From positions 71,364,001 to 71,428,000 of the forward strand of contig OZ076409.1 of NCBI GenBank assembly GCA_964187785.1: a stretch of DNA of 64,000 bases, read 5' to 3'. This DNA comes from Amphiscolops sp. MND2022. Taxonomy: Eukaryota. Both the position numbers and the translations under genes were made by a program. Positions 1 to 64,000 of this stretch are shown here, in pieces; position 1 is the first letter of the stretch; each line of letters starts with the position of its first letter. The notes under the pieces are model-generated. The model saw only the letters and a program-made list of their open reading frames with translations. It did not search any database and had not been told where the DNA came from.

Positions 1-810
1 TCCCGCAATTTTGAACTTTCTGGATGGCGAACCGTGAGTGTAAGAAGAATGGAGGGATTGCCGCAGAATTTTAGACACCATTCATCGCTGCGACGAACAC
101 AGTTCCCATTAAAACCTTTCCAAGCCTCAACAATACATAAATGTATCGGCGACGATGTCCCTCTGCTGGCAACACAGATAGCCACCACTGATCCCTTTGA
201 GCGGAAAATGTTTAAGTTATGGGAGAAGAACCAGCTGCTTGTTTTGGTGAGTCGTGTTAAAGAACTCAAAGAACTGACGTTTGTGGGAAGTAAATCCGCA
301 ACGTTGAAAACAATTAAAGACATTGCAACGTCCACCAGCCAGTGGGACTATTTTGTTCACGAATTCGTGGAAGCATTGTCGCAACAAGACTTGTCAAAAC
401 CCCTTGCAACGTTTCCTGTCTCCCAACATATTTACTCAATGTCCTGCCAATCCGTTCCACAAGACAATTGCGCTACAGTGTTCTGCCTGATGTCATTGAA
501 AGACGGAACTATTGCTGTCGCCGCTTGTACTAACATCAGAAAAACACTGCAACAGAAAAATTCATTCGATGTAACTGAAAACACTTTTACTGGCAACAAA
601 AAACCATGGGCTCTACTGTGTGCTGCCTTTCACCCAGCTGTGTCCGCCTTAGATGACTCTGTGCGAGCGTTGGAGTGCCATTGGAACAATAGTCTTCCAC
701 ATGACGAAAAACCCGATCCACCGAAAATTGTGCGTCTGTTGCAAGAGACCACATTATCATTCACTTGCTTCTATCAAACTATTAACTTTGTTTCATTTGT
801 AAACCCATGA
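1..810 (+). CDS. 5'-truncated ORF: C-terminus of a PIF1-family helicase plus a degenerate GIY-YIG domain, probable Helitron-like RepHel transposase
   Basis: Frame +1 has no stop from base 1 to TGA at 808-810. RRTQFPLKPFQASTIHKCIG and LWEKNQLLVLVSRVKELKELTFVG (nt ~91-288) resemble the PIF1 C-terminal motifs RxQFPLxLAxAxTIHKSQG and GQLYVALSR. VFCLMSLKDGTIAVAACTNIRKTLQQKN...KPWALL...RALECHW (nt ~472-693) follows the SLX1-type GIY-YIG pattern. The HUH Rep domain is not in the window. Confidence 0.85.
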   Translation, partial: SRNFELSGWRTVSVRRMEGLPQNFRHHSSLRRTQFPLKPFQASTIHKCIGDDVPLLATQIATTDPFERKMFKLWEKNQLLVLVSRVKELKELTFVGSKSATLKTIKDIATSTSQWDYFVHEFVEALSQQDLSKPLATFPVSQHIYSMSCQSVPQDNCATVFCLMSLKDGTIAVAACTNIRKTLQQKNSFDVTENTFTGNKKPWALLCAAFHPAVSALDDSVRALECHWNNSLPHDEKPDPPKIVRLLQETTLSFTCFYQTINFVSFVNP

Positions 811-876
811 ACTTTCTTGTTTCTCTATTTGATTTCCTTGCATGAGTTTGTTGCTGCACAAGTTAGTGCCCCAATG

Positions 877-889
877 AATAAAGAATAAA
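877..889 (+). promoter_or_regulatory. Possible tandem polyadenylation signals
   Basis: AATAAA at 877-882 and 884-889, about 70 nt after the stop codon. Weak evidence in AT-rich DNA. Confidence 0.35.
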
Positions 890-1251
890 AAAACTCTCAG
901 AAAAAATATGATGACAAAACAATGAAACGGCCGAGAGTTTTAAAAAAAAAACAGAAACTCATCATTATTAGACAAAAATCTGTTAACAGAAACTGTTCTT
1001 TTTTCTACACAAACAAAACGCATCGGATGAAACCGAATTAGCAAAACTGTCTTTCCTGCAAAAATTTTATCCCTTTTTAGATTGTTTTTGAACATCTGTC
1101 GAATTGCCACGAAGAATTCGGACACCTAGCTACGGTAAAATGCACTTCGGGACTGGTGTGAGGTTTGTTACTTGGCACTCGCGAGGATTAGAATGCCTGC
1201 AACTATCCTACGATCAAAAGGTTTCCACAATGTCCTCACTAGAGTCTGTTG

Positions 1252-1288
1252 AACACTGATTGGCTGCCCGCAGCAGCCAATCAGTGTT
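1252..1288. repeat. Perfect inverted repeat, 16-bp stem with 5-nt loop
   Basis: AACACTGATTGGCTGC-ccgca-GCAGCCAATCAGTGTT. Confidence 0.95.
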
Positions 1289-1312
1289 TTCTGTCTAGCA
1301 TTTTTCAAACTG

Positions 1313-3858
1313 ATACCATGAAGATATTTTCTGCTCTCGTCTTCTCATTGCACTATCGTGTTTTGTGTTATCTGAATCAAAAATTTCCAAATTGCCGTTG
1401 ATTTTCCATTGGTTTCAAATTTAGTCTTTGCTCTTTTGTTGGAGTGATTTCGTGGTGCAAGTTGGTCCTTAATTATTATGTGTGAATGATGACATCGCTG
1501 GTTGTCTGGCTCTACATAACACTCAAACTGTAGGGCACTAACAGCTGCCGGCTCACATGTCATCAAATACACAGTTTAATTTCGGACCAGTTTTTACACC
1601 AAAAGAACTCCATCAATTGACGCTAGGCTGTGACTCGATTCGACTCCCAGCATTGTGTCGTTTTCCATGTGATGTTTAGTTGTGTGTTACACTTTGTTCG
1701 GCTGTTGGTTTCTAGTTACAGCTATGCTCTTTTGTTGAAATGATTTCGTGGTGCAAATTGGTCCTAAATTATTATGTGTAAATGATGGCATTGCTGGTTG
1801 TCTGGCTCGACAGAAAACACAAACTGTTGGGCGCTAACAGTGGCCGGCTCACATGTCATCAAATACACAGTATAATTTCGGACCGGTTTCCACACCGGAA
1901 ACATTCTGACAATTGATGCTAGGCTGTCACTCTTGTCGACTCCGAAACTTGTGTTGTTTTGATAAGATCCGTCTTTGTGTGTTACACATTTGTTCGGCTG
2001 TTGGTTTCAAGTTACACCTATGCTCTTTTGTTGGATTGATTACGTGGTGCAAAGTGGTCCTAAATTATTATGTGTAAATGATGGCATTGCTGGTTGTCTG
2101 GCTCTACATAACACACCACATGTAGGTCACTAACAGCTGCTGGCTCACGTGTCATCAAGTACATAGAATAATTTCGGACCAGTTTCCACACCGAAAACAA
2201 TCTATCAACTGATGCTAGGCTGTCACTCCTGACAACTCCAAACTATATGTCATTTTCCATGAGACCCTTCGGAGTGTGTCCTTTTTGTTTGGTTGTTGGT
2301 TTTGGGTTTTGGCTAGGCTCTTTTGTTGCAAATATTCCGTGGTGAAAGTTGGTCCTAAATTATTATGTGTAAATGATGACATTGCCGGTTGTCTGGCTCG
2401 ACAGAAAACACAACCAGTTAGGCGCTAACAGTGACCGGCTCACATGTCATCAAATACACATTATAACTTCAGACCGGATTCCACACTGAATTAATTTACA
2501 TCAATTGTAACTCGGCCATCACTCTTTTTCAATGTTGCCAAACTACATGAGCAACCTTAAATTATACTAATTTATTGTATCTCAATACCATGAAGACATA
2601 TTCTGCTCTCGTCTTCTCATTGCACTATCGTGTTTTGTGTTATCCGAATCAAAAATTTCCAAATTGCCGTTAATTTTCCATTAGTTTCGAGTTTAGGCTA
2701 TGCTCTTTTGTTGGAGTGATTTCGTTGTGCAAGTTGGTCCTAAATTATTATGTGTAAATGATGACATCGCTGGTTGTCTGGCTCTACATAACACTCAAAC
2801 TGTAGGTCACTAACAGCTGCCAGCTCATGTGTCATCAAATACACAGTATACGTTCGGACCAGTTTCTACACCAAAAGAACTCTATCAATTGACGCTAGGT
2901 TGTCACTCGATTCGACTCCCAGCATTGTGTCGTTTTCCATGTACTATTTGGTTGTGTGTTACACTTTGTTCGGCTGTTGGTTTCTAGTTACAGCTATGCT
3001 CTTTTGTTGGAATGATTTCGTGGTGCAAACTGGTCCTAAATTATTATGTGTAAATGATGGCATTGCTGGTTGTCTGGCTCGACAGAAAACACAAACTGTT
3101 GGGCACTAACAGTGGCCAGCTCACATGTCATCAAATACACAGTATAGTTTCGGACCGGTTTCCACACCGAAAACATTCTGACAATTGATGCTAGGCTGTC
3201 ACTCTTGTCGACTCCGAAACTTGTGTTGTTTTGATAAGATCCGTCTTTGTGTGTTACACTTTTGTTCGGCTGTTGGTTTCGAGTTACAGCTATGCTCTTT
3301 TGTTGGATTGATTTCGAGGTGCAAATTGGTCTTAAATTATTATGTGTAAATGATGGCATTGCTGGTTGTCTGGCTCGACAGAAAACACAAACTGTTGGGC
3401 GCTAACAGTGGCCGGCTCACTTGTCATCAAGTACATAGAATAATTTCGGACCAGTTTCCACACCGAAAACAATCTATCAACTGATGCTAGGCTGTCACTC
3501 CTGACAACTCCAAACTATGTGTCATTTTCCATGAGACCCTTCGGCGTGTGTTTCTTTTTGTTTGGTTGTTGGTTTTGTGTTTTGGCTAGGCTCTTTTGAT
3601 GCAAATATTCCGTGGTGAAAGTTGGTCCTAAATTATTATGTGTAAATGATGACATTGCCGGTTGTCTGGCTCGACAGAAAACACAACCTGTTGGGCGCTA
3701 ACAGTGACCGGCTCACATGTCATCAAATACACATTATAACTTCAGACCGGATTCCACACCGAATTATATTTACATCAATCGTAACTCGGCCATCACTCTT
3801 TTTCAATGTTTCCAAACTACATGAGCAACCTTAAAATATACTAATTTATTGTATCTCA
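1313..3858. repeat. Higher-order tandem repeat: two ~1272-bp blocks, each with four ~296-bp monomers
   Basis: GGTCCTAAATTATTATGTG-like anchor at 1464, 1760, 2056, 2351, 2736, 3032, 3328 and 3624. Block start ATACCATGAAGA at 1313 and 2585. Confidence 0.92.
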
Positions 3859-5389: not shown

Positions 5390-5477
5390 TCAACGCACAC
5401 CGTCTGTAGGCATGCCGAGGCATGCCTTTCGACGACATATGCCCAATACATTTAGCCCCGCAGTCTTTTCCTGCTAG
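5390..5477 (+). promoter_or_regulatory. Conserved 3' terminal module (first of 24 copies)
   Basis: Consensus CAACGCCCACCGTCYGT-RGGCATGCCGAGGCATGCCY-TTCGACGACGTATGCC, then a variable spacer and CTRG. In the copies measured, the 20-mer starts 62-74 bp before CTRG. Confidence 0.9.
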
Positions 5478-6744
5478 GTGGCCGGGAATTTTTTTTCTGC
5501 TCAATTCTTTGCCAACTGGGGGAGGGGCCCCTGGTGGCTGTTACCCAAAATACATACCTACTAAAATCGTCCGCTCCGGATACGATCTCGAAAACCAATC
5601 CATAACTTTTTCTGAAACTTTGCATGTGGGCCTAAAATGAGATTGTAAGAACAATGATATAGGCGTCATTTCTGAATTTTTGCAAAAAGTTGGTCAAAAA
5701 CGCAAAAAATGGGTCAAAATTGACCACTTTTTCAACTTTTTTATTTTTGAGAGCCCATATCTCGGAACGAGGTGGCCGTAGCGGCCCGCATAAGGACTCC
5801 GTTTTTGCTGGGCACTTGATGAGGAGTGCGTGGACAAATTTTCGTCCAAATCGAAGTAAAATTGACTGAGTAATGAGTGATTTTTTGACGACCTTTTTTG
5901 CGAACCCCATTGTATCTCTGCCATTTTCCGCCAAAATTTTCAAAAGTGGTTCTACAGGAGGCAACCCCTGCCCAATTTTCTGCAGAACAAAACCATTTGG
6001 CCCTAAATACGAGGTTTCAGCGTTCTAGCATTCCCCGGTGAAAAGTTATAGGACTTAGAAATTTGTCAGTGAAACGCAAAATTTGTAAATTCAACTTCCG
6101 GTGCCCAAAAGTCACAAAACTTTCACACAACTAGTATTGCAAGTGAATGCATGTGGAAAGTACTGAAATAGACGAGAAAAATGAGCTATAGAACGACTCT
6201 CTACCTTAACCTGAGGTTGACTTATGATGTTTTGAATGTGAGCATCCTATCTGATTTTAATGTCAAAAATGAGATTTTGTAAGTCATGTCTCATCAAAAA
6301 CTCATCGGAATACGTTCAATCATCTCTATAGCTGTTCAATTGCCGTAGCTTAGTACAGCAACGCCATTGAATGTCTTTGGACCCATTTTGAAAATTATCG
6401 ATACCGTCTTATTCGTCCGATATCACGAAACAGTTGAGTACATTCCATCTCCCTCTTTGGGGGGAGATGAGAATGTACTCGCTAAAGAGCTGGTACAATG
6501 GCCCATATTTGTTTTTAACTGACGCTTCTCATGATATTTCACACGTACACCTCTATTTGGTAACACATTTTCCTTTGCACCGTGTTTATATATGCCAAAC
6601 CACTTCTTTACCTTACTACTTCTACTCAAACATCACCAACGTCAACGCCACATACTCGCATCAACGCCCACCGTCCGTAGGCATGCCGAGGCATGCCTTT
6701 CGACGACGTATACCTAGTATACGCGTTAGCGCGGTAGCCGCTAG
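5478..6744 (+). mobile_element. Cassette 1, family A (1267 bp)
   Basis: GTGG start, CTAG end, type-1 hairpin at 6436-6480, 3' module at 6679. Confidence 0.85.
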
Positions 6745-9120
6745 GTGGTCGGGGTGTGTTTCCCAGCCGAGTTTGCCGCGCGGGGAGGGACCCGTTCAGC
6801 GGCCCAGGTCATTATTTTTTTACATTAAAAAAAACGATACCCCGGAAAGCGATTTCGAAACCCACCCGTAGGATCCCTCTGAATTTTTGCATACACCTCC
6901 GTATAACAGTTCTAAGAAAAAGTCAGCAAGGGCGTTTTCAGTTCTAAACGGGGAATGTTGACCAAAAAGCGCAATTTATGTCCAAAAAAATGCAATTTTT
7001 CGACTTTTTTATTTTTGACGGCCTACAGCTCTTTTCCAGATGCCCGCCCAAGTCATAAACCGGAGTAAACTTTTGTTGGGCACTTCGTGAAGAATCTGTA
7101 GGGTGATTTTCGTTTCAATCCTATTTCCTGACGTTGACTTATGGTTGGGTGAAAAAACGCAACATTTGTTACAAAAAGTGCTTTTGGTACTCAAGGGCCC
7201 ATAACTCGTGACATAATCAATTGAGCAAGTTCGTGTATAATTACAATTTTGTTGCCTATTTATAGGAGAACAAACAAGCAGTGACAAAATTTTCTGTGGG
7301 AAGACGTCAAAAAAAGATATCAGAGGTTTTATAATCAATAAAACAGTGTTTTTCGGTTATCGTGGAAAAAATGTAAAAGGGTGGCATTTTTCGGCTGTTT
7401 AAGGTAGCGGGTATTTTATTGCTGTTATTAACTCACCTCTACTATTCATTTACTTGGATGATTTTCAATTTTGATAAATTACATGATAAACTTCATTTTT
7501 TGCGTCACCAATATTGACACCCACGATTACAGTCAATTTTTTCGCGTTCACGTTTTTGAGTGGATATAACTTTTTTCCAGTGCGTTTTAGGGTCATCATC
7601 CAGGAGCACAAAATTGTTGGCCGTCTTAAGCAGAAAATATATGGTAAGTTTGGAGTCTTTTGAAACGTTTTTGAAATGTCCAGAGATGCGCAAATTTACA
7701 GTTTTTTTGCCCACAAAACACAATTTTACGAAACCCAACACTTTTTGCCAAAAAAGTCAAACTTTGTCCACACAACTTAGATTGCAAGTGAATGCATGCG
7801 GAGAGTACTTGAAATGATGGGAAACATGAGCTATATAACGCTCCTTTACGACAACGTGACGTGGACTTAGGATAATTTGAAAAAGTACGAAAAAAAAGAA
7901 CAACGGTTCCAAAACAATCAGTTTGTAGTAAATGGCCAATAACTCCATACACAACGCTCCGCGCAAGCTAGTGTCCAAGTACGTTTTTGTTACCCGTGAA
8001 CAGTGCAACATATAAGTAAAAGTAAAACTTTATGTAGAGAATCGTCGGAGAAAGAAATAACGGGATTTTTCATCACATTTAAGAGACAAAATTGAAAAAT
8101 TAGTCAATTCCTGGCATTTTACCTAACTTTTTTCGACAGTACACATACAGGAGGTAAAATTCGCCCAATATCATGCCTAACAAAACTATGTGATCCATTG
8201 GCCGCAATTTGAGCGTTCCACCTTTCCCCAGTCATAAATTATAGGACTTCGAAAACTTTCAAAATTTCCATTTTTCAACAAAATTTCAAATTCAGGCCCC
8301 CCAAAGGTAAGAAAGTTCCACACAACTAGGATTGCAAGTGGTTGCATGTGGAAAGTGCTCGAACCGACGAGAAAAATGGGCTTTAGAACGTCTCTCTATC
8401 GTAACCTGACGTTGACTTATGATGTTTTGAATGTGAGACTGCTACGTGCTCGAGAAGTGTAAGTGGAACATATGTCTCGTTGAAAACTCATCGGAATACA
8501 GTCAATGAACCCAATCACCCTAAATTGCAGTTTCCTAGTGCAACAACGTCTGTCAAGGACCTTTTTTGATAAGAGTCGAAATTATTATTAAATTCAGTTA
8601 GCAAGAAACACTTGAGTACATTCTCATCTCTCCCCATCGGGGGAGATGAGAATGTACTTGCTAAAACGGCTTCTTTGTTTTCATGCGATGGATTCTGTGC
8701 CTTGCCACACATATAACTTTGTTTTGTGTGACCTTGCATATATACTTTGACTTGTCATGATAAATTTCTTCTCGTAAATTTACGTAAATCCACAATGCAT
8801 CTACAATGCATCTTCAACGTCAAAGCCAAATAAAAATAGCTGGCCACCGTCCGTAGGCAGAGCAAGGCATGCTTTTTGACGACGTATGCCGAAACACAAA
8901 CGCGAACAAAACTGCTGAAAATCAGAAACAGTGGCCAACAATTTTGACTGTTTGACATATGGTAGGTTTTTATATGGAACTTAGACATCACTGATATTTC
9001 ACAACATTTCAGCTGACGCCCACCTACCACTATCAACGCGCACCGTCAGTGGGCATGCCGAGGCATGCCCTTCGACGACGTATGGCTAATACTTTCAGCG
9101 ACGCCCCCGCCTACCTCTAG
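6745..9120 (+). mobile_element. Cassette 2, family B (2376 bp)
   Basis: Two copies of the CACACAACT..ATTGCAAGTG block (~7767, ~8316), type-1 hairpin at ~8614-8658, a vestigial 3' module at 8844 and an intact one at 9051. Confidence 0.85.
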
Positions 9121-10392
9121 GTGGCCGGGAACTTTTTTTCCTGCATTTTTCTGTCCAATTGGGGGAGGGGCCCCAAGTGGCTGTTATCCGGTTTTACTAC
9201 CTACCCTAAACACGCTCAAAAAATGACGATCTCGAAAACCACCCCTTAGATTTTCCTGAAACTTTGCATACAGGCCTAGAATCAAATCCTAAGAACTATT
9301 TCCTACTGGCGTTTTTCCGAATTTTTTCAAAAAGTTGGTCAAAAATGCAACAAAAGTTGCCAATGGACATAAAAAACGCAACTTTTCGACTTTGAGGGCC
9401 CATAACTTTTTTCAGAGTGCCCGGAGCGATTCGCACAATAACAACAATATTGCTCAGCATTGTCGGAAGAGTGCGTGGACAAATTTTGGTTTGAATCGGA
9501 TGAAAAATGACTGAGAAATAAACGCAAATTTTCGTGCATTTGTTGCAAATACCAGTCTATCTCTGCCATTTTCGCCCAAAATTTTTCCCAGAGCCTTTAC
9601 AGGAGGCAACCACTGCCCAAATTTCTGCCGAGCAAACCCATTTGGCCCTAAATACGAAGTTTCAGCGTTCTAGCATTTCCGGGCAAAAAGTTGTGGGACT
9701 TAGAAAAATTTCAAAAAAACGCAAAAATTGTAAAAAGTAACTTCTGGCGTCCCAAAGTCAGGAAACTTTCACACAACTAGTATTGCAAGTGAATGCATGT
9801 GGAAAGTACTCGGCTGGACGAGAAAAATGAGCTATAGAACGACTCTGTAGCTTAATTTGACGTTGACTTAGAACATTTTGAGTGTGAGCGTCTTATAGGA
9901 TTTTAATGTCAAAAATTAGATTTTGTAAGTCATGACTCATCAAAAACTCATTGGAATACGTTCAATCATCCCCATAGCTGTTCAATCACCGTTGCTTAGT
10001 AGAGCAACGCCATTTAATGTCTTTGGACTCATTTTGAAAATTCTTCTCACCGTCTTATTCGTCCGATATCACGAAACAGTTGAGTACATTCCATCTCCCC
10101 CCTTGCGGGGGAGATGAGAATGTACTCGCCAAAGACCTGATACAATGGCCCATATTGGTTTTTATTTGACCTTTCTCACAATATTGCACACGGATAGTTG
10201 TGTTTGGTAAAAGTTTTCCTTCGCACCATGTCTCCAGAAGGTAAACCACTTCTTTACCTTACTACTACTCAAACATGACTAACGTCAACGCCACATACTC
10301 GCATCAACGCCCACCGTCCGTGGGCATGCCGAGGCATGCCCTTCGACGACGTATGCCAAATAGCGCCACCTGGCGCCCCCAATTTCCGCTAG
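9121..10392 (+). mobile_element. Cassette 3, family A (1272 bp)
   Basis: Colinear with cassettes 1 and 4. Type-1 hairpin at 10082-10127. Confidence 0.85.
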
Positions 10393-11662
10393 GTGGCTGG
10401 GAATTTTTTTTCTGCTCAATTCTTTGCCACTTGGGGGAGGGGCCCCTGGTGGCTGTTACCCAAATTACATACCTACCCAAAGCGTCCGCTCTGAGTACGA
10501 TCTCGAAAACCACCCTTTAGATTTTCCTGAAACTTTGCATACAGGCCTAGAATCAAATCCTAAGAACTATTTCCTACTGGCGTTTTTCTGAATTTTTTCA
10601 AAAAGTTGGTCAAAAATGCAACAAAAGTTGCCAATGGACATAAAAAACGCAACTTTTCGACTTTGAGGGCCTATAACTTTTTCCAGGGTGCCCGGAGCGG
10701 TTCGCACGTGGACCACAACATTGCTCAGCATTGTCGGAGCAGTGCTTGGACAAATTTTGGTTCGAATCGGATGAAAATTGACTGAGAAATTAACGCAAAA
10801 TTCGGTGCATTTGTTGCAAATACCAGTCTATCTCTGCCATTTTCGCCCAAAATTTTTCCCAGAGCCTTTATAGGAGGCAACCCCTGCCCGAATTTCTGCC
10901 GAGCAAACCCATTTGGCCCTAAATACGGAGTTTCAGCATTCTAGGATTCCCGGGCGAAAAGTTGTGGGACTTAGAAAATTTTCAAAAAAACGCAAAAATT
11001 GTAAAAAGTAACTTCTGGCCTCCCAAAGTCAAGAAACTTTCACACAACTAGTATTGCAAGTGAATGCATGTGGAAAGCACTCGGATAGACGAGAAAAATG
11101 AGCTATAGAACGACTCTGTAGCTTAATTTGACGTTGACTTATGACATTTTGAGTGTGAGCATCCTATATGATTTCAATGTCAAAAATGAGATTTTGTAAG
11201 TCATGTCTCATCAAAAACTCATCGGAATACGTTCAATCATCCCCATAGCTGTTCAATCGCCGTGGCTCAGTACCGCAACGCCATTTAATGTCTTTGGACC
11301 CATTTTGAAAATTTTCGTTACCGTCTTATTCGTCCGATATCACGAAACAGTTGAGTACATTCCATCTCCCACTTGGGGGGAGATGAGAATGTACTCGCCA
11401 AAGACCTGATACAATGGCCCATATTGGTTTTTATTTGACCTTTCCCACGATATTGCACACGGATAGCTGTGTTGGGTAAAAGTTTTCCTCTGCACCATGT
11501 CTCCAGAAGCTAAACCACTTCTTTAGCTTACCACTTCTACTCAAACATCACTAACGTCAACGCCACATACTCGCATCAACGCCCACCGTCTGTGGGCATG
11601 CCGAGGCATGCCCTTCGACGACGTATGCTAAATAGCGCCACCTGGCGCCAAATTTTAACTAG
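10393..11662 (+). mobile_element. Cassette 4, family A (1270 bp)
   Basis: Close paralogue of cassette 3. Type-1 hairpin at 11353-11396. Confidence 0.85.
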
Positions 11663-13051
11663 GTGGTTGGGGCGGACCCCAGAACGCACAAGGAGGCGCG
11701 GGGAGGGTCCTGCGCCGACGTAGAATAATTTCATATAATACTAGTATCCTACATGGGTGTTTTAGAGGCGATTTTGGAATCTAACCGTAGGATTTGGATA
11801 ATTTTTTGCATGCGGCCATAACTCAAAATTCTAAGAACTTTTTCCTACTGTCATTTTCCACGCAAATTGTTTTTTGTTGACTTATGGCCGAAAAACCGGA
11901 AATAACGTCCTTTTTAGACGTTATATCCGAAGTGTCGTCATAACTTTTTTCCAGGGCATGCTAGCGTTCTCGTTCACTTTTACACTTAGTTGCAGCATCT
12001 CAAAATACAACTGGTGGAAAATTTTGGTTGCATTCGGATCACCCCCCACCGAGATAGAAGGGTTCCCCCCTCCAGTTTTACCCCCCAAATTTGCAAAATA
12101 GCCAATTTTGAGCATGAAGCCGAGGATTTAGCGTACCCATACCCTCCTGATGTTTTGTTGTACGTATTGGGGTCAATCTGACGACATGTGTGGTTTTCAC
12201 CCCCAACCCCCCCTTGGACCGGAAATGACACTTTTTTGTGTTTTTTGGCAGAATTTAGCCTTTTTCATTATTAGGCAGTCGTTTTAGGGACTCCTAGCAG
12301 GATATCGAAATTGAAATACAACCTGATCACAACCCAGTGACAACATAGTGGCCACTTGGAGGTATCATCATGACCGGAAGTGGGGTCAACCCCCCTTTTT
12401 GTGACCGCTTTTTGACCTTGTGCACCAAAATGCCAACATCTTGAGGCCTAATGAGGCATTCAAATCTGTACCAAGATAAAATGTTAGACAACCGAAGTCC
12501 CGGAAGATCTTTAGCATATACCGGAAGTTACCCCCCATGACCGGAAGTTACCCAATGTGACCGGAAATGGTCCAAAAATTAATGTAAAGTTGAATTTTTC
12601 ACTATTTCAAGACCACTTAATTGAAACTTTTCAATCTATAAACTAGCGTACTGGCTTGTTTTGCTGAATTTATGGAAATTGATGAGCTCTATCGCTCCCG
12701 ATAGCCTTCTAAGTTGACCTTGCGTCAACTTTGTAGGCTATCGATAAAGAAAAATGAACAACAAAGTACATTGTTGCTCTCGTTTTTTTCCCGTTGTTTT
12801 TCCTCAAACATTCTTGAGACATATACATGGCCGTTAGTTGAAATCAATATTTAGCCCATGTTATAGCTGGAGCAGCGAAGCGTTACACAGACTAGTGTGG
12901 TTTTGAAATCACACTATTTAAATTAACAACTGACCGTCTTAGTCAACTCCACACATTCATACCAACGCCCACCGTCTGTGGGCATGCCGAGGCATGCCCT
13001 TCGACGACGTATGACGAATCCACTCCAACGACACCCGCAGTCCTCAGCTAG
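11663..13051 (+). mobile_element. Cassette 5, family C (1389 bp)
   Basis: Paralogue of cassette 8. Type-2 hairpin at 12699-12743. Confidence 0.85.
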
Positions 13052-52456: not shown

Positions 52457-54443
52457 GTGGGCGGGGGTAATTCCCCAACAAAAATTACGGCCGGCGGGTT
52501 GGGTCCTGCCGGACGTTCAAATAGCGCGAAGCATCTAGTAGAAAACAAGGAGTCCTGAAACAGCGATTTTAAAATTGAACCGTTAGAATTTGGTTTTAGA
52601 TTGCATGCGGCCCTAAAATCCCCATACGAATGGAAGTTCCTGCTGGCGTTAAGCAATTGAAATAATATATAAAAAGTTATGGCCCATTTTTGGGTCACCG
52701 AGAAGGTCAAAATGAAGAAAATTTTAACTAAGTTGCTGATAACTCAAAATGTGTTAATTTTTGGACTTTGACTGTGAAACAAGCTTGGAACCTTCATTTC
52801 GTGGCTGTGGCATTGCACTGAACACAAAAGATGTAGAGTTTTCACATTTTTTGAAAATTCGACAATTTTGAATTTTTTTTCACTACTATCAGTACACTAT
52901 ATGTCAAAAACACCTCTGAAAAATTTTTTTATATGCTTAAATTTAGAAACCTCGGCATCCATGGTTTCCGTCAGTACCTACTCGCTGCCAAACACTCAAC
53001 AGTTTGCATCCAATGTGAAAATAAAATTTTTTTCGAGGTCTTAGGTGTTTCACAAGGATTTCTCAACTTAGTATCAATTTACAAATTGGTCATTTTGAAT
53101 ACATTATTTTCATCGAAGCGTGTCATATACCGCCCTAATGCTCACGAACGGGCCTACTGGCAACGTTGGAACCATTTATAGTAATAAAAAGTTTAAAAAA
53201 AAATTTTTCACCCCGTCTTCAGTCATTTTACACACTTTCGGAACTTAACTTAGAAAAATTTCAACCAAAAACCCATTTTTTGTCAAGTCGAAAATTCAAA
53301 TTCAGCTTTTTAAGCAAAATAAATAAATCTGACATAACCAGTGGGGCCCATGAAACTCAAAACCACGATTGAGACTGGTATCAATGGCTCCAATAACATA
53401 TGAGTCGCGATAAGACGCTATTTTGAGCAAAACATCTCAATTGAGGTAAAGATCTCGCAAGCCAGCGATCACTGTGAAATGTGATTTCATCAAAAATTTA
53501 CTCTTTTTTGTCAATCACTATGTGCACAGAATGCGTAGGGTGCGTTTCAGCACTATAATGAGGTTTTTGAAGGCATCGAGTTGCTCAAGGGGTGGTATGA
53601 GACATTTTTGTCCCATATACTACTGTAGTTTCCAAATTTTTACCCCAATATCTGGAAATACAAACTTGACAAAATACTTTCAACTACTTTATTCAAAGGT
53701 TACAATATAGATGAACACTGTGGTTGATAAGAAACTTTCATCTCTTTCGTTTTCGGAAATATTTCCGTTCGCATGTGTTACATTCATAGCAGAAAAAAAA
53801 ATCGAAACTGAAAAATACGCGATTTTGCTGATATAGAATCGCAATGATTGTGCCTAAAAACTCTTTAAACACTTCTAACGCAACCTTACGCACCCAAAAT
53901 GATCGAAAATGCTATTCACAATGGTGACATGTGCTCTTTCTACGATCCTGGCTGGACAAGGTTTGCATATTTTTCAAGTACCTGTCAGCTAAATCTTGTG
54001 ATAGCCTTTTCAGTTGGCCTTGTGTCAACTTGGGAAGGCTATCACATCAAAAAACCATCAACAAAAATCATTTTTGTTTATTGGATCTTACAGTCGATAC
54101 TTTTTTTCGTGATTCTATACTACCGTTAGTATATTTCATCAGGTCACCTTACGATTGCATTCAGTCTTTGATAAAAACCTATGAACTCAAAGTCACATTT
54201 ATATTTTTTTTGCCAGAAAATAACATCAAAAATATCTAAAATATATAAAATAGAGTCTTTAACATTTTTACGTTTCAAGTTTTTGCCGTTATTAGGCCAA
54301 TCAACGTCCTAAAGCCACATCCTGCCACATACTGTACAACGCCACATAGTGTTGCGACGTGCACAGTCTGTGGGCATGCCGAGGCATGCCCTTCGACGAC
54401 GTATGCCGAATACCGCGGGCCTACGCCCGCGCTCCTCGGCTAG
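52457..54443 (+). mobile_element. Cassette 23, family F (1987 bp)
   Basis: Closest to cassette 14 by eye. Type-2 hairpin at 53998-54045. Confidence 0.87.
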
Positions 54444-55748
54444 GTGGCCACGACCATGGTTTCTTGCGTATCTTGTCGAATCTTTTGTCGTTGCCGGCCG
54501 GGGAGGGACCCGTTTGCCGGCGTGTGTAGTGTGGGGCCCCCATACCCAAAAAGTGGTATTTTTTTCAGAGATCTCAAAATCGGCCCGTCAGAATTGCCTG
54601 AAATTTGGCATGAGGCTCCCAATTGGGGAAAAAATAAGAAGTGTAGGAGGCGACTTGTTCGGGTAAATATTGTATGTTGACTTTTGGCCAAAATAGTGTT
54701 CCCCCCCAACATGGGCAAAATCACATGAGGTGTAAAAATATGATCACAACTTTTGAACCTTTGGATTTAGCGGTACGGTCGTGGACCACATTAAGCAAGA
54801 GCTTTGGTGAGCGGGTAGGATAGATGGGTTTTGATCCCAGTACCTTCAACCACTTTTGAGAAATTAACGTTTCAAACAAACATCCGGGAGGTATCTGTTG
54901 CCCCTGAAGGCAGGTTTTTCGCCATTTTCAATGTGAAGGAGTGGGTTTAGCGCAACGTGTGTGGGGTGCTTTTTTGTTGCCCGTGTGCGGAGCGTTGTAT
55001 AGAGGTGCTGGTTGTTGAAATTGGAAAAGTTGGTAAAAAGTTATACCTATACCCCCCCTACTGTCTCTGCCATTCAATTTTTTTTTTCAACTTCAGGCCT
55101 CCCAAAGGTGAGAAACTTCCACACAACTAGTATTGCAAGTGAATGCATGTGGAAAGTACTCGGATAGACGAGAAAAATGAGCTATAGAACGACTCTGTAG
55201 CTTAACTTGACGTTGACTTATGACATTTTGAGTGTGAGCTTGCTATGTGAGAGAAAAATTCAAAATTGAAAATCGAAGCTAAGTCTCATCCAAAACTCAT
55301 CGAAATACGTTCAATCCATCCCAAAGCGGATTAATTCCAGATATATAGTGCAGCAACACTATTCAAGACCATTTGACACAAATTTACTAGTTTTGACATT
55401 GTATTATTCATCCGAGAGCACAAAACAGTTGGGTACATTCCATCTCCCTTTCGGGGGAGATGAGAATGTACCCGCTAAATGACACGCACCATGGCCTAAT
55501 TTTTACCTTTATGCGACGTTTTCTAGGCTTTCGCGCAAGCCCACTAATATTTAGACTGGTTTCTTTCTCTTTCACTCCAAACATTCCGTCCGTACTAACC
55601 ACCTTACACACCACCAGCAGCTCAACGACACATCTGTAACGTCAACGCCACATACTTGCATCAACGCCCACCGTCCGTGGGCATGCCGAGGCATGCCCTT
55701 CGACGACGTATGCCCGTTGTCACAACAGGGCGCCCCCATTCCCGCTAG
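54444..55748 (+). mobile_element. Cassette 24, family L (1305 bp)
   Basis: Paralogue of cassette 20 with different neighbours on both sides. Type-1 hairpin at 55431-55473. Confidence 0.87.
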
Positions 55749-58410
55749 GTGGTCAGTGCTGTTGCGTTCATTTTTTTCCGGCCGTGGGGGAGGGCCCCTC
55801 TGAGGCCGGTCATTTTTCAGGTAACAGCTTTCTTATACAAAAAAGCGGGAAAAAACCTCAGTGCTCAAATCCCAACCGTCAGAATGAGCTGAAATTTGGC
55901 ATGTAGCTAGTGCATTGCAAATGATTAGGATGGGTTATAACGCTATGTTTGGCAAAATTGGTTTTGTTGCATTTTTTTTGTCATATAGGGCCAAAAATGG
56001 CCTTTTTTGCGTATTTTTTGCTTGACAAGCTAATAGCTCGCGTTGGGTTGGTACTAGCGATACGGGTGTGGGGTATGGAATTGTTATATTACCAAGTACC
56101 TTGCTGATTACGTTATTTGATTTCCGCCCACATCACCCCCCACGCCGGAAATGCCCAATTTGTCACTTCCGGTCGCAATTTTTGACTTTTTTGGATGGAG
56201 TCAAAACCCATTTCCGGTGTGAAGGAGTGGGTTGAGCGCTTCGACCCCAATATACTAAAAGTAGGTTTAGACAAAGTCCTATTAGGAAAAAAGTAATGTA
56301 AGCCCGTACCTATCACCCCCTCACTGGAAATAGGGGTCACGCCTCCTTTTTCTGTGTTGCAAAAGTGACATGTGCACATTTGTCCAACTCCGAAGCCCCG
56401 GAGCACTGTGGGACCCTCATACTTTCTAAACACCTATCCCACACGCTACCGGAAGTGACCGGAAGTTACACCGGAAATGACATCCTTGGACCGGAAATGG
56501 TCAAAAAGGGACTTTTTCAATAAAAAATAGACACTTTTGGTGCAATTTTTAGGCAAAAAGCATAATTCGTGATACGCTTGTTGCAGTTGAAAGGGCCATT
56601 GTTCAGCAAGAATGCATACAGCATTACGTAGCACATCAAGTGGTTGATAATTTTTCGTCCATAATATCCATAGGACCGGAAATGGCCATTTTTGAATCGG
56701 AAATTTCTTCAGCTTGATTTTTAACAAGTTTTTCCACAATGTTAGTGTAGGAATTGCTCGTCGGATGCTTTAGGTCTATTTTAAAACTAGCTGACTGCTT
56801 CTTAGAAATGTATTTCAGAAATCCCAACCAATTCCAGATTACCGCAAATGGGAGTAATTGCCTCCTTTATGACCTTTGAATGATAAATTGTTAAAATCCG
56901 CAAATTATTTTATTCCAAAACTGTTGCTCAGGTTATATCTAAGCAATCACATCTGCTTGTTTTGAAGTGCTGTATTGTGGGAGATACAATAAATGCTTTT
57001 TAATAGTAATACATACGTGATATTCGCCGCAATAAAGATTTTTCAAATCAACCATTTTGAAGTCCTACTGGTGTTCCGCACACCCGAAATAATTTAAGTT
57101 TCTAGTTTCAATTTTCAGGCTTCCGCGACTATTGAGTTGAGATGATAGTTTTCACGTTCTCTGCAAAACGAGCATTTCATTGTGTATGTGACATTTATTG
57201 GGTTGTTTCACATGGTAATTCAAAACTAATTGATCATACAATTTAGAACAATTGAAAATTTTCAATTGAACAATAAATGTTTTAATAATTTCTCTTTCGT
57301 TAAAGATACTCTTTTGTGGCCATTAGAACAGGTTGAATTGGTTGAAAAAGTAACCAGTGCGATACATCGTTTAATACATAGCGTTTGACATCGTTTTCTT
57401 GCGAACAAAGACAAGCATGATTTGTTGGAAGTTTTTACCATATCGCTTCAAATCGATCGTGACAAACAATGAATTTCTCGTTTTAATTGCTACTTCGAAA
57501 GCAGCCTGAAAACGCAAATCGATCTATTGAGTTATGGAGATGCAACTAAGCATTTCAAGTCTGGGTTTCAATTTAATTTTATCACTCCGGACTATTTTTA
57601 TGTCGCAAAAGTGATAAAGGGTGTTAGCAAGGTTAAAAACTTCGAACAATTTTAAAAATAATGCCTCCGGAAAGGGAAGAAAAATGAGTTTTCCTGTCAA
57701 AACAATGATAACCACGTACGAAACATCAAGTATTTGTATTGTTCAATAGTCCAAAACATGAATGAAGTTTTTAAATATCCAAGAGTTTCTAATCAAGCAT
57801 GCGTTTCAAATGTCTCACAGGGCAGCATCGTTTTCAAAAAACAGTGCTTTCAATGTGGTTTCATACCAGCAAAACGAACGCAGGCACAACCACTTTCTCA
57901 AAATTCTTGCACAACAACCAATTTCTTTGAAAATCCTATTTGATTCCTCAAGGTGTATGGTGAGAACCCTGTTGGGTTCCAAAGTTGATGTGCTGTTTTC
58001 TTGGGTTTGCGGGATAAGTTACAACGGAAATCTGAAAGCAGGTCGTCTCAATAAAATACCTGTTGCTCTTTAAACGATTGGACTTAAGTAGTCGAAATTT
58101 ATTCTCAGACACTTTCGATCAGAGAATGTTTGAGTCCTAACGTTTGCTCGACTCTCTTGGATAAGGCAACAATAGTTTACTAATCTGTACTCGTGGAAAA
58201 AAGTCAACTGCCGGGTCAAAAACAATCTGTATGTAACTTTTCTCTCGTGCAAAGTTATTTTTTACCCCCTCTGACTCAACTATAGCATGTACGTAATGAA
58301 ACCAATAACACCTTCAACTGTTAATCAACGCCCACCGTCCGTAGGCATGCCGAGGCATGCCTTTCGACGACGCGCGCCGAAAACAATATAACGGCGCCAC
58401 CCGCTTCTGG
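55749..58410 (+). mobile_element. Cassette 25, family M (2662 bp)
   Basis: Ends CTGG. Lacks a ~408-bp segment present in cassette 26. Confidence 0.85.
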
Positions 58411-61400
58411 GTGGTCAGTGCTGTTGCGTTCATTTTTTTCCGGCCGTGGGGGAGGGCCCCTCTGAGGCCGGTCATTTTTCAGGTAACAGCTTTCTTATAC
58501 AAAAAAGCGGGAAAAAACCTCAGTGCTCAAATCCCAACCGTCAGAATGAGCTGAAATTTGGCATGTAGCTAGTGCATTGCAAATGATTAGGATGGGTTAT
58601 AACGCTATGTTTGGCAAAATTGGTTTTGTTGCATTTTTTTTGTCATATAGGGCCAAAAATGGCCTTTTTTGCGTATTTTTTGCTTGACTAGCTAATAACT
58701 CGCGTTGGGTTGGTACTAGCGATACGGGTGTGGGGTATGGAATTGTAAGAATACCAAGTACCTTGCTGATCACGTTATTTGATTTCCGCTCACATCACCC
58801 CCCACGCCGGAAATGCCCAATTTGTCACTTCCGGTCGCAATTTTTGACTTTTTTGGATGGAGTCAAAACCCATTTCCGGTGTGAAGGAGTGGGTTGAGCG
58901 CTTCGACCCCAATATACTAAAAGTAGGTTTAGACAAAGTCCTATTAGGAAAAAAGTAATGTAAGCCCGTACCTATCACCCCCTCACCGGAAATAGGGGTC
59001 ACGCCTCCTTTTTCTGTGTTGCAAAAGTGACATGTGCACATTTGTCCAACTCCGAAGTGCCCCGGAGCACTGTGGGACCCTTATACTTTCTAAACACCTA
59101 TCCCACACGCTACCGGAAGTGACCGGAAGTTTCACCGGAAATGACATCCTTGGACCGGAAATGGTCAAAAAAGGACTTTTTCAATAAAAAATAGACACTT
59201 TTGGTGCAATTTTTAGGCAAAAAGCATAATTCGTGATACGCTTGTTGCAGTTGAAAGGGTCATTGTTCAGCAAGAATGCATACAGCATTACGTAGCACAT
59301 CAAGTGGTTGATAATTTTTCGTCCATAATATCCATAGGACCGGAAATGGCCATTTTTGAATCGGAAATTTCTTCAGCTTGATTTTTAACAAGTTTTTCCA
59401 CAATATTAGTGTAGGAATTGCTCGTCGGATGCTTTAGGTCTATTTCAAAACTAGCTGACTGCTCCCTAGAAATGTATTTCAGAAATCCCAACCAATTCCA
59501 GATTACCGGAAATGGGAGTAATTGCCTCCTTTATGACCTTTGAATGATAAATTGTTAAAATCCGCAAATTATTTTTTTCCACACTTGTTGCTGAGATTAT
59601 ATCTAAGCAATAACATGTGCTTGTCATGAAGTGCTGTAATGTGGGAGTTACGAATATTGCTATTTAAGAGTATTACATACGTGAATATCCGCCGTAATAA
59701 AGATTTTTTAAAACAACCACTTTTGAAGTCCTATAGATTGTCCGCACACCCGAAACAATTCAAGTTTCTAGTTTCGATTTTAAGGCTTCCGCGACTATTT
59801 AGTTGAGATGATAGTTTTCACGTTCTCTGCAAAACGTGCATTTCATTGTGTTTTTGACATTTATTGGGCTGTTTCACATTGTAATTCAAAACTAATTGAT
59901 CATACAATTTGGAACAATTGAAAATTTTCAATTGAACATTAAATGTTTTAATAGTTTCTCTTTCGTTGAAGATACTATTTTGTGGCCATTAGAACAGGTT
60001 GAATTAGTTGAATAAGTAGCCAGTGCGATACATCGTTTAATACATAGCGTTTGACATCGGTTTTTTTGCGAACAAAGACAAGCATGATTTGTTGAAAGTT
60101 TTTACCATATCGCTTCAAATCGGGTGTGACAAACAAGGAATTTCTCGTTTTATGTGCTACTCCGAAAGCAACCTGAAAACGCAAATCGATCTATTGAATT
60201 ATCGAGATGAAACTAAGCATTTCAAGTCTGGATTTCAATTTAATTCTATCACTCCGGTCTATTTTTATGTCGCAAGAGTGATAAAGCGTGTTAGCAAGGT
60301 TAAACACATCGAACAATTTTAATAATAAAGCCTCCGGAAAGGGAAGAAAAAATGAGTTTTCCTGTCAAAACTATGATAACCACGTACGAAACATCAAGTT
60401 TTTGTATTGTTCAATAGTCCAAAACGTGAATGAAATTTTTTAAATATCCAAGCGTTTCTAATCAAGCATGCGTTTCAAATGTCTGACAGGGCAGCATCGT
60501 TCTCAAAAAACATTGCTTTCAATGTGGTTTGATACCAGCAAAACGAACGTAGGCACAACCAGATTCTCAAATTTCTTGCAAAACAGCCGATTTCTTTGAA
60601 AATCCTAATTGATTTCACAGGGTATATGGTGAAACCCTGTTGGATTCCAAAAATGAAAAGCTGATTTCTTGGGTTTGCGAGATAAAAGACAACGGGAATC
60701 TGAAAGCAAGTCATCTCAATAAAATACCTGTTGCTCTTTAAACAAATGGACTTTAGTAGTCGAAATTTTTTCTCAGACCTTTTCGATCAGAGAATGTTTG
60801 AGTCCTAACGTTCGAATCAGGTTGGTTTCAGGTGGCTCGAAGTGCCAGCTGAACCAACCTTTCAAATAAAGAAAAACCCCACATCTCCCTTCATGCCACG
60901 CTACCCCGTATAGCGTTTCAACTTGACAGAAGTTGGAACGTTTGATTTTGGCGTCGCTTGGGATTGACACACCAGTGTTGATACTAAATTTGGCAAAGAG
61001 AAATCGCAGAAATGATTGTTTCTTTTTTTCCCTTTGATTTAGTCTGTCGAGCGTACAAAGCAGTTTGGGAAACTAACTTGCATTTCCACTGAACGAAAAA
61101 AAGTAGTAGCCTTGCAAACTCCTGGAAGAAATTGAATCAGGTTTTCCTATTTGTGAGATCAGCTGTCACTCAATTATCAATTACTTTTTTAAAAATTTTT
61201 AGGAACAACTAACCTAACTCTGCTCGACTCTCTTGAATAATGCAACAATCGTTTACTGATCTGTACTCGTGAGAAAAAAATCAACTGCAGGTCCAAAAAC
61301 AATCTATATATCTTTGGTTTATTCCGTGCAAAGCTTTTTTTCACACCATGTGACTCAACTATAACATGTATGTAATGAAACCAATAACACCTTCAACTAT

Positions 61401-61485
61401 CAACGCCCACCGTCCGTAGGCATGCCGAGGCATGCCTTTCGACGACACGCGCCGGAAACAATCTAACGGCGCCACCCGCTTCTGG
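58411..61485 (+). mobile_element. Cassette 26, family M (3075 bp)
   Basis: Ends CTGG. Type-4 hairpin at 60820-60859. Confidence 0.85.
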
Positions 61486-63467
61486 GTGGGCGGGGGTAAT
61501 TCCCCTTCAAAAAATTCGGCCGGCGGGTTGGGTCCTGCCGGACGTCAAATAGTGTGAAACATCCAGTAGGAAACGGCGACATTTATCAGCGATTTTAAAA
61601 TTGAACCGTTAGAATTTGGACTTGGAGTGCATGCGGGCCCAAAATGCCCATACGAATCGAAGTTCCTGCTGACGTTAAGCGATAAAAACACTTTATAAAA
61701 AGTTATGGCCCATTTTACGTTCACTTAGAGAGGTAAAATGAGGAAAATTTTAACAAAGTTGCTGATAACTCAAAATACATTAATTTTTGGACTTTGACTG
61801 TGAAACAAGCTTGGAACCTTCATTTCGTGGCTGTGGCATTGCACTGAACACAAAAGATGTAAAGTTTTCACATTTTTTGAAAATTCGACATTTTTGAATT
61901 TTTTTCACTACTATCAGTACACTATATGTCAAAAACACCTCAGAAAAAAATTTTTATTTGCTTAAATTTAGAAACCTCGGTATCCATGGTTTCCGTCAGT
62001 ACCTACTCGCAGTCAAACACTCAACAAATTGCATCCAATGTGAAAATAAAATTTTTTTCGGGGTCATAAGCGTTTCACAAGGATTTCTCAACTTAGTATT
62101 AATTTACAAAATGGTCATTTTGAACACAATATTTTCATCGAGGCTTGTCGGCTATAGCCTTAATGTTCTAGAACGGTCCCACTGGCAACGTAGGAACCAT
62201 TTATAGTAATAGAAAGTTTTAAAAAAATTTTTCATCCGGTCTTCAGTCATTTTTCAGTCATTCGGAACTTAACTTAGAAAAATTTCGACCAAAATACCCA
62301 TTTTTTGTCAGGTCGAAAATTCAAATTCAGATTTTTAAGCAAAATTATTAACTCTGACGTAACCCATGGGGCCCATGATACTCAAAACAACAATTGACAC
62401 TGGTATCAATGGCTCCAATAACATATGAGTCGCGATAAGACGTTATTTTGAGCAATACGTCTCAATTGAGGTAAAGATCTCGCAAGCCAGCGATCACTGT
62501 GAAATGTGATTTCATCAAAAATTTACTCATTTTTGTCAATCACTATGTGCACAGAATGCGTAGGGTGCGTTTCAGCACTATAATGAGGTATTTGAAAGCA
62601 TCGAGTTGCTCAAGGGGTGGTATGAGACCTTTTTGTCCCATATACTTCTGTATTTTCCAAAATTTTTAGCCCAATATCTGGAAATACAAACATGACAAAA
62701 TACTTTCAACTACTTTATTCAAAGGTTACAATATAGATGAACACTGTGGTTGATCAGAAACTTTCATCTCTTTCGTTTTCCGAAATATTTCCCTTCGCAT
62801 GTGTTACATTTGTAGCAGAAAAAAAATCGATACAGAAAAATACGCTATTTTGCTAATATAGAATCGCAATGATTGTGCCTAAAAACTCTTTAAACACTTC
62901 TAACGCGACCTTACGCACCCAAAAAGATCGAAAAGGCTATTCACAATGGTGACTTGTGCTCTTTCAACGATCCTGACTGAACAATTTTCGCAAATTATTC
63001 AAGTACCTGTTAACTGAATCTCGTGATAGCCTTTTAAGTTGGCCTTGTGTCAACTTGGGAAGGCTATCACATCAAAAAATTTTCAACAAAAATACTTTTT
63101 GTTTATTGAAAATGACAGTCGATATATAATTTCGTGATTCTATGCTACCGTTAGTACCTTCCATTAAGTCACCTGACGATTGCATTCAGTCTTTGATAAA
63201 TACCTATGAACTCGAAGTCATATTTATAAATTTTTTGCTAAAAATAAACATCAAAATTATCCAAATTTATTAAAATTGAGTCTTTATTGTTTTTGTTTTT
63301 CTTTTTCTACTGTTATTAGGCCCATCAACTTCCTACAGCCACGCTCTCTGTCATACTGTACAACGCCACATAGTGTTGCGACGTGCACGGTCTGTGGGCA
63401 TGCCGAGGCATGCCCTTCGACGACGTATGCCGAATACCGCGGGCCTACGCCCGCGCTCCCCGGCTAG
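61486..63467 (+). mobile_element. Cassette 27, family F (1982 bp)
   Basis: Same head variant as cassette 10. Type-2 hairpin at 63023-63070. Confidence 0.87.
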
Positions 63468-64000
63468 GTGGGCGGGGGTAATTCCCCAACAAAAAAATCG
63501 GCCGGCGGGTCGGGTCCTGCCGGCCGTCCAAAATCAAAATCCTCCTAGTAGAAAACGGCATGTCAAACGAGCTATTTTTTTATTTAACCGTTAGAATTTG
63601 GGTTTAGATTGCATGCGGCCATGAAATGGCCATACGAATGGAAGTTCCTGCTGACGTTTTGCGATTGAAACACTTTATAAAAAGTTATGGCCAATTTGTC
63701 ATTCACCTAGAAGGGCAAAATGAGGAAAATTTTAACAAAGTCACTGATAACTCAAAATGTAATAATTTTTGGACTTTGACAGTGAAACAAGCTTGGAACT
63801 GTCATTTCGTGGCTGTGGCATTGCACTGAACACAAAAGATGTAAAGTTTTCACATTTTTTGAAAATTCGACATTTTTGAATTTTTTTTCACTACTATCAG
63901 TACACTATATGTCAAAAACGCCTCTGAAAAAAATTATTATTTGCTTAAAATTAGAAACCTTGGTATCCATGGTTTCCGTCAGTACCTACTCGCTGCCAAA
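63468..64000 (+). mobile_element. Cassette 28 (partial), F- or I-type head
   Basis: Same head as cassettes 13, 15 and 22. Cut off by the window edge. Confidence 0.8.

Follow-up and report, generated by a model that had tools for sequence, protein, structure and literature searches.

Helitron-like elements (HLEs) are described as falling into two groups: HLE1, which start with TC, end with CTRR and insert at A^T, and HLE2, which have short inverted repeats, insert at T^T and carry the marker domain DUF6570, a few clusters being left unclassified (available text of PMC11417382). In the case of Helraiser, the top strand is nicked and circles are formed with a precise joint of right and left terminal sequences (RTS|LTS), which is itself precisely cleaved (available text of PMC5876387). 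Helitrons arrayed in tandem, and now and then self-inserted, have been recorded, be it as concatemers, as satellites or as single cases (accessible parts of PMC5876387, PMC5148889, PMC12001565, PMC11934779), the described arrays are ascribed to concatemers of a single element (accessible parts of PMC11934779 and PMC12001565, citing Xiong 2016), and a centromere atlas, in its accessible part, presents Helitrons only as colonists of satellites (10.64898/2026.09.17.752431). Here we analyze a stretch of 64,000 nucleotides (the window, C1:71364001-71428000; contig OZ076409.1) of the 1.07-Gb eukaryote assembly of Amphiscolops sp. MND2022 (GCA_964187785.1), which is occupied by a mixed array of Helitron-like units. 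The array is a large, real feature, Helitron-like in its working and outside HLE1 and HLE2 as these are defined, with a self-targeting pattern that we did not find in print: no account of mixed, junction-targeted Helitron arrays turned up in the literature searched, Repbase/Dfam, subscription papers and supplements lying outside the search. We propose, with a probability of roughly 70%, that it arose by junction-targeted rolling-circle transposition of elements, both autonomous and non-autonomous, that belong to a divergent Helitron-like lineage.

Cutting the window at CTRG|GTG[GC], followed by clustering, gives 28 units starting at position 5478, of which 27 are complete and the last continues beyond 64000. 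All are on the + strand, free of spacers, and read GTG(G/C)...CTRG, in the order A B A A C D D C E F G H F F I G J J K L F I F L M M F I. This reproduces exactly the number, single direction, lack of spacers and order of the units in the original prediction, an earlier reading of the same DNA. Self-comparison of the window shows repeats of 1-5 kb, all on the same strand. The window cassettes contain no open reading frame (ORF) above 162 aa and no recognisable genes, and there is no Rfam match in the window. The features are the following:

1..810, + strand: 3' end of the ORF of a Rep-helicase fusion (RepHel, 2,301 aa) in a 21.3-kb autonomous unit (Pfam PIF1 5.6e-9; Rep fold 7LCC)
1313..3858, + strand: internal tandem repeats of the autonomous unit, units of ~296 bp within a 1,272-bp duplication (self-comparison)
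5391..5477, + strand: 3' terminus of the autonomous unit, with module, hairpin GGCATGC-CGAG-GCATGCC, spacer and terminal CTAG (folding z -2.67)
5478..6744, + strand: unit A, its 5' ~970 bp 96-98% identical to the 5' end of the autonomous unit
6745..9120, + strand: unit B, its 5' 1.8 kb common to the second upstream autonomous unit, with an extra internal module at 8856
9121..10392, + strand: unit A
10393..11662, + strand: unit A
11663..13051, + strand: unit C
13052..14454, + strand: unit D
14455..15843, + strand: unit D, another subfamily, 86% identical to its neighbour
15844..17234, + strand: unit C
17235..19919, + strand: unit E, without module, its 3' end found at 8 genomic places with differing neighbours
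19920..21902, + strand: unit F
21903..23877, + strand: unit G, GTGC start
23878..26668, + strand: unit H
26669..28655, + strand: unit F
28656..30638, + strand: unit F
30639..35399, + strand: unit I, its 5' 1.4 kb in common with F, with internal ~336-bp repeats
35400..37374, + strand: unit G
37375..38444, + strand: unit J, without module
38445..39514, + strand: unit J, without module
39515..44404, + strand: unit K, without module, CTGG end
44405..45708, + strand: unit L
45709..47695, + strand: unit F
47696..52456, + strand: unit I
52457..54443, + strand: unit F
54444..55748, + strand: unit L
55749..58410, + strand: unit M, CTGG end
58411..61485, + strand: unit M, CTGG end
61486..63467, + strand: unit F
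63468..64000, + strand: unit I, first 533 bp in the window, ending at 68226, where the array goes on

The same family is met in different company, as had been claimed for L: its copy at 44405 lies between K and F and that at 54444 between F and M, and the two are 97.9% identical. More generally, in 40 near-identical unit pairs (>=96%) identity drops at the junction where the neighbours differ, and exact identity past the cut mostly extends for 4-9 nt, which is the common CTRG/GTGG core. The spacer between the 3' module and CTRG is similar among copies sharing the upstream body (identity 0.76, n=200), versus 0.58 (n=188) for those sharing the downstream unit and a background of 0.57 (n=2015). 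We counted 53 distinct ordered neighbour pairs at 77 junctions, and across 158 junctions drawn from many arrays the downstream units differ in 145 of the 157 pairs whose upstream ends are near-identical. Near-identical copies are scattered through the array and not gathered at one end.

The unit ends are well defined. The 5' ends have GTG(G/C) and a GGG-GGG-CC box ~35-55 nt inside in common, and 23 of the 27 complete window units end with a 3' module, CAACG-C-A-CGTC-GT-GGCATGCCGAGGCATGCC-TTCGACGAC, followed by a family-specific spacer and CTRG. The module (GGCATGCC) is not in the other four (E, J, J and K), yet all of these end with CTRG. At the 79 junctions of a 224-kb region around the window, CTAG occurs 76 times and CTGG 3 times, partly by definition of the search. 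A conserved hairpin lies 40-55 nt from the 3' end: it folds with z of -2.5 to -3.2 in four module-bearing ends, while three module-less ends fold no better than shuffled sequences, and 5 of 80 module copies have compensatory changes in the stem. The helicase element at the left of the window does end in the same module, as had been noted, with the module at 5409 and CTAG at 5474-5477.

The array extends well outside the window. In the 224-kb region all 79 junctions are on the + strand, there is no N, and 222 kb consist of unit DNA in 23 clusters; the count of 78 units and 23 families is a slight underestimate, as one cluster (F22) represents two units with one missed junction. The array reaches at least 48 kb upstream and at least 109 kb downstream of the window, the former leading us to reject a model with a single element at its head, and it sits in a domain of about 6 Mb. 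One 5'-end type is present continuously up to C1:71.83 Mb, unit DNA makes up at least 90% of six out of seven 4-kb probes placed from 70.8 to 75.3 Mb, and 28 of the 94 starts of family H fall in C1:70.4-76.5 Mb (26 on the + strand), with 40 more in C2:102.3-103.5 Mb. Genome-wide, a 28-mer of the module has 4,919 exact matches (none for the reversed control); among the first 100 matches listed, six have no other module within 15 kb. Most copies are indeed arrayed and not dispersed: for one type of 3' end, 1,870 of the 1,938 ends counted (~96%) are directly followed by a GTGS element start, 43 by A/C/T and 25 by GT and a non-G, in a count that left out GTGW and G[ACG]. Reciprocally, for one 5'-end type, CTRG stands in front of 805 starts and a non-G in front of five. 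Arrays are shown in this genome only, because the element ends of 43 marine metagenome relatives were not definable in their short contigs, where overlapping copies did not diverge and the module was absent.

We also observed that the orientation of array domains switches in blocks, as in C2:102.36-103.41 Mb (32 minus, then 8 plus family-H starts), with further switch sites at C1:76.04-76.09 Mb and C1:23.98 Mb. This suggests inversions, or separately seeded arrays that meet.

Copies that border host DNA reveal the target. Where 3' ends meet host sequence (30 loci examined, with a search pattern that excluded G at +1), T is the second host nucleotide at 21 of the 22 loci with the module, and host DNA before the 5' end reads CTNG in 13 of 15 recognisable starts (CTAG 5, CTTG 5, CTGG 2, CTCG 1), after one locus (L053) was dropped for its element-like upstream DNA. 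An empty paralogous site, ...CTAGCTAG^ATCTG, has a filled copy with a 1,977-bp GTGG..CTAG unit exactly at the caret. It follows that there is no target duplication and that the 3' CTAG belongs to the element. A model with target site duplication is rejected by the same pair. The host target CTNG^DT therefore mimics, as a relaxed copy, the end-to-end joint CTRG^GT of the elements themselves. Such sites occur at ~4.4 per kb in flanking DNA, which amounts to millions in the genome versus about five thousand modules.

At the empty copy ARAGORN predicts a tRNA whose type is unclear, and a tRNA-like repeat resembling a short interspersed element (SINE) serves as host target at C1:98095990 and C2:16.31 Mb, as well as in the 3' flank of another locus (L214). 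The same genome also harbors dispersed Helitrons of canonical and Helentron type (L167-L190, L217-L227), a natural internal control for target preference.

These data can be accommodated by a cycle for which Helraiser provides the analogy. The transposase would nick the top strand at CTRG^GTG and peel off one unit, and peeling would stop at the next CTRG to give a circle whose joint again reads CTRG|GTG. The integration nick would need the same kind of sequence as the origin, and a head-to-tail junction, with terminal hairpins on both sides, would offer a complete natural substrate that out-competes a bare CTNG^DT. A first copy would seed host DNA, later copies of any family would join at its seams in the same orientation, and, each insertion making another target, the growth of arrays could be autocatalytic and reach megabase size. 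Transposases of several lineages may act in parallel, probably favouring their own end types, which would result in local clustering of related families, and occasional read-through or block duplication may copy two or three units together. Whether one can go further, and see here an undescribed, deep eukaryotic clade of rolling-circle transposons (RepHel with GIY-YIG and an OB-fold partner), represented by hundreds of protein clusters, marine plankton metagenomes included, that integrates at its own replication origin, with dozens of families and many transposase lineages self-assembling multi-megabase domains of duplication-free, reusable landing pads, is to our mind evenly balanced.

Several observations weigh against junction-targeted transposition in this form. 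A minority of units were copied together: 12 of 157 pairs are alike on both sides, against a mean of 2.6 and a maximum of 9 in the shuffle, and a three-unit block of 3.7 kb is repeated 0.7 Mb away at 92.6% identity. There is also an excess of same-family neighbours (13 vs 7.6, p 0.02, or 29 vs 13 when F and I are merged). The claim that units move individually, borne out by the breakpoints of the 40 pairs, needs to be qualified to this extent. The module is not the required signal, because four unit types lack it and the module-less end of E is shuffled equally precisely, its eight genomic occurrences lying five times before five different element starts and three times before host DT. That several types of spacer occur in family F suggests a degree of exchange inside the module. 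As for the target, two of the 15 host 5' flanks (GTCC and TTTA) and three AT-rich flanks do not fit CTNG, a credible 5' end was not found within 6 kb at 12 of 20 loci searched, and the empty and filled pair that was verified is a single one. Finally, comparison of sequences alone would not part an enzymatic preference for junctions from selective loss of dispersed copies or from local hopping.

The latter two processes form the best of the other explanations, although in our view an unlikely one: insertion would be sequence-specific and not junction-seeking, with local hopping to nearby CTNG^DT sites, purging of dispersed copies, arrays as safe havens, and read-through and block duplication adding bulk. 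The local family bias of the arrays and the multi-unit blocks would agree with it, as would one locus (L206, C6:8.76-8.77 Mb) where a unit sits at a CTAG 17 nt past the end of another unit and not at the end itself. However, the 222-kb array stretch contains 317 CTNG^DT sites on the + strand, ~240 of them internal and unused, yet the units read intact, end-to-end and un-nested. Proximity alone is therefore insufficient, as it would place most insertions inside units.

Quite improbable, next to junction-targeted transposition, is a complex satellite whose units were transposed once and then shuffled, the common 3' module serving for unequal crossover or gene conversion. A 60-bp module common to most families, the several spacer types of F and some di-unit repeats speak in its favor. 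But new neighbour pairs do not arise by crossover in unit bodies, and if crossover took place in the module, the spacer would move along with the downstream unit, contrary to observation; since the spacer travels with the upstream body, we reject the latter. Module-less units are shuffled with equal precision, and intact transposases occur throughout the domain. Spacer and breakpoint data thus largely refute satellite shuffling as the main process. Simple tandem duplication of neighbours is also rejected, as the right neighbour is not the closest copy of the left unit in 11 of 13 adjacent same-family pairs. An assembly artefact stringing repeat copies together is very improbable: the two public runs are low-share contig sets (0.07 and 0.05; none recorded as RNA) whose short pieces do not span series of junctions, but the units are diverged (75-99.98%) with natural ends, no N occurs in 224 kb, arrays lie on several chromosomes with host-flanked starts and ends, and close transposase relatives (94%) are found on 0.17-1.5 Mb contigs in a public protein collection.

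The autonomous unit at the left of the window spans 21.3 kb (window -15790..5477) and has passenger-type ends. An HUH-Y2 Rep domain and a GTGG 5' end, both expected upstream in the original prediction, are present: the unit starts with GTGG, and its ORF, which begins ~6.1 kb before the window, is an intact 2,301-aa frame with Rep and PIF1 domains. Its first ~970 bp are 96-98% identical to family A. Pfam recognizes PIF1 above the cut-off (5.6e-9), whereas Helitron_like_N falls below it in this copy (4.1e-6, 27.5 bits vs 28.9) and is above it in other members of the lineage. The Rep motifs YFFTLTC, EFQ...PHIH and YIAKY are present, and H1066, H1068, Y1241 and Y1245 are invariant in 14 sequences. 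A structural model of the Rep region (predicted local distance difference test, pLDDT, 76.5) matches the Helraiser transposase 7LCC (E 4.4e-8, 13% identity) as its sole match below 1e-3, followed by non-significant matches to parvovirus Reps. The helicase profile matches Pif1 structures in the PDB down to 7e-24; these bacterial Pif1 structures score far better than the Helraiser helicase (1e-10), and the helicase may have a separate origin.

Autonomous elements are ordinary members of the array, and the proposed stacking of the cassettes behind a helicase element is therefore unsupported: the array continues upstream of it, and further autonomous copies (C1:74.5, C7:65.2, C2:42.2 and C1:74.9 Mb) lie between junctions with differing neighbours. 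Neighbours differ among all five arrayed copies of this unit, and a degraded copy (C5) is found solo. Intact autonomous copies that are almost identical (98-99% at three loci) exist, and the system may be recently active for this reason. A genome search with Rep gave 135 matches of 29-100% identity (133 of 492 candidates scored); 36 of these fall in C1:70.5-76.5 Mb, all on the + strand and 28 in open frames of at least 2,200 aa. That one enzyme mobilises many passenger families is hence unsupported, because many diverged transposases, with Rep domains 29-100% identical, coexist within the same array domain. By patterns of peptides, and at the sensitivity these afford, no transposase relatives were found in viral contigs or prokaryote genomes.

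Further upstream we found a second autonomous unit, 23 kb long, with a transposase in two frames (32% identical) and a GIY-YIG end (2.2e-6). The window element had been called a PIF1/GIY-YIG element, of which the first half stands: no Pfam GIY-YIG domain was found in its own C-terminus, where it appears degenerate, while it is present in the next upstream unit and in 13 of 18 relatives scanned. The second unit also encodes a 411-aa ORF whose model (pLDDT 65) resembles single-stranded DNA-binding proteins with an oligonucleotide/oligosaccharide-binding (OB) fold (Foldseek matches to CST, LEF-3 and RPA, E to 8.5e-6; against MCM10, Z 9.3, root mean square deviation 3.7, 119 aligned). Homologues of this ORF adjoin RepHel in four different marine metagenome elements, and both it and GIY-YIG may have a role in transposition. 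This OB-fold-like second gene (L013:7315-8547; also L098, L113, L119, L121/L122), which is conserved next to RepHel in this genome too, was not found in the window's own autonomous copy. A 190-aa ORF within the 23-kb unit (L031:8329-8898) has a weak match to GDSL/SGNH hydrolases (Lipase_GDSL_2, E 4e-4, below cut-off) and is possibly a further cargo gene. In four relatives (P0019, P0020, P0053 and P0090) a protease domain, either Ulp1 (Peptidase_C48) or OTU, is fused to RepHel.

In an unrooted quick tree, 20 of the new Rep domains group apart from 20 HLE2-type and 2 HLE1-type rows (SH-aLRT 100), with labels assigned by motifs, HLE1 being represented by one family and HLE2 by the homologues of one query plus one other copy, not by the whole clade. 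An HLE2 profile scores 6-30 bits on 20 new sequences vs 317-559 on its own training set, and the residues between Q and the first H of motif II number 7 in 89 of 90 sequences of the clade and 5 in 77 of 77 HLE2-type sequences. The lineage is broad, with 484 clusters at E<=1e-10 and 43 metagenome loci, and could be contained among the unclassified clusters of HELIANO.

The elements are Helitron-like in the broad sense, and their 5' ends and targets are those of neither HLE1 nor HLE2. They share with HLE1 and Helraiser an HUH-Y2 Rep with PIF1-type helicase, a 3' hairpin with CTRR, absence of target duplication and head-to-tail joints, and their OB-fold ssDNA-binding partner recalls the RPA of some HLE1 (available text of PMC11417382 and PMC5876387). 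Unlike HLE1, they start with GTG(G/C) and not TC, as fixed by the empty site and host-flanked copies, and target CTNG^DT and not A^T. They differ from Helraiser by a Rep only 13% identical in structural alignment, a motif II spacing of 7 vs 5 and a frequent C-terminal GIY-YIG (Helraiser and HLE data from the accessible parts of the same sources). With HLE2 (Helentron/Helitron2) they have in common a RepHel above 2,000 aa, OTU or Ulp1 in some relatives and internal tandem repeats in non-autonomous units; language-model neighbours of the transposase include DUF6570-bearing clusters, and a captured GIY-YIG has been reported for one family of HLE2 (available text of PMC11417382). Unlike HLE2, there is no T^T target and the Rep branch is separate from the 20 HLE2-type domains; no terminal inverted repeats (TIRs) were found in 23 families (best 5'-vs-3' inverted match scores 5-8.5), and a scan of 20 RepHel proteins or frames detected neither DUF6570 nor AP endonuclease. 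In contrast to described tandem arrays of one element, those found here mix families.

A Helitron clade of Paramecium also lies outside HLE1 and HLE2, is target-specific and of fixed orientation, occupies its own genomic compartment, and has a 3' end, CCAA, that resembles its target repeat (available text of 10.1101/2025.11.06.686955). Its copies are however in telomere repeats, flanked by C4A2, and the main text does not mention GIY-YIG (10.1101/2025.11.06.686955); host flanks here are not telomeric. Replitron-1 resembles our elements in having its left end just after a short fixed motif (RG), but Replitrons are Y1 and helicase-less, while here Y2 is fused to PIF1, and no mixed arrays appear in the accessible text on Replitrons (10.1101/2022.12.15.520654). 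Insertion after a fixed motif, in the manner of Replitrons and IS91, makes an element look flanked by a short direct repeat. IS91 is a bacterial HUH transposon that has no helicase and inserts after a CTTG/GTTC tetranucleotide.

Integrons collect gene cassettes by a tyrosine recombinase and grow from one end, and the HeT-A/TART/TAHRE retrotransposons of Drosophila form arrays at chromosome ends. By analogy, both can be likened to the present arrays, as mixed, same-orientation, head-to-tail units at a defined joint. The arrays here nevertheless differ from them by HUH chemistry, many enzymes inside the array, and absence of polarity and cargo, and no integron-type tyrosine recombinase matched in the ORFs scanned. 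The description of the array as integron-like consequently holds for the junction as a recombination site, and fails for polarity, near-identical copies being scattered, and for cargo, no genes being recognisable.

Precise single insertions would thus have built megabases of complex repeat, unlike unequal crossover in satellites or rolling-circle concatemers of one element, by a transposon that spares its host damage through self-targeting. This bears on target choice and joining in Helitrons: if the target is the origin sequence, the integration step can be tested with short oligonucleotides, and a sequence-specific, scarless and reusable HUH integrase may be of use in genome engineering. Boundaries such as these would escape annotation software that expects TC/CTRR or TIR ends and A^T or T^T targets.

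Some further sequence features are worth reporting. Degenerate second copies of the module occur internally (window 8856, and downstream units F00/F17 and F22); they precede the true end by ~200 bp (by 660 bp in F22), in some cases with compensatory stem changes, and may have been left behind by 3'-end capture. A second long palindrome, GAGTACATTC...GAATGTACT, is common to many otherwise unlike families ~300-1,000 bp before the 3' end (window 6436, 8614, 10082, 11353, 19318, 34433, 45391, 51482 and 55431), as are the motifs TGCAAGTGAATGCA and GATAGCC..CAAGTTG.CC. A mini-unit of 148 bp (window +127398..127545), in which the 5' end of one family is fused to another family's 3' module, suggests that very little sequence may suffice for an element. 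Lastly, the junction sequences CCGCTAGGTGGC and TAGCGCCACCTGGCG (e.g. window 10385-10396) show what we take to be a resemblance to the CTCF core motif, and thousands of such oriented copies could affect chromatin organisation.

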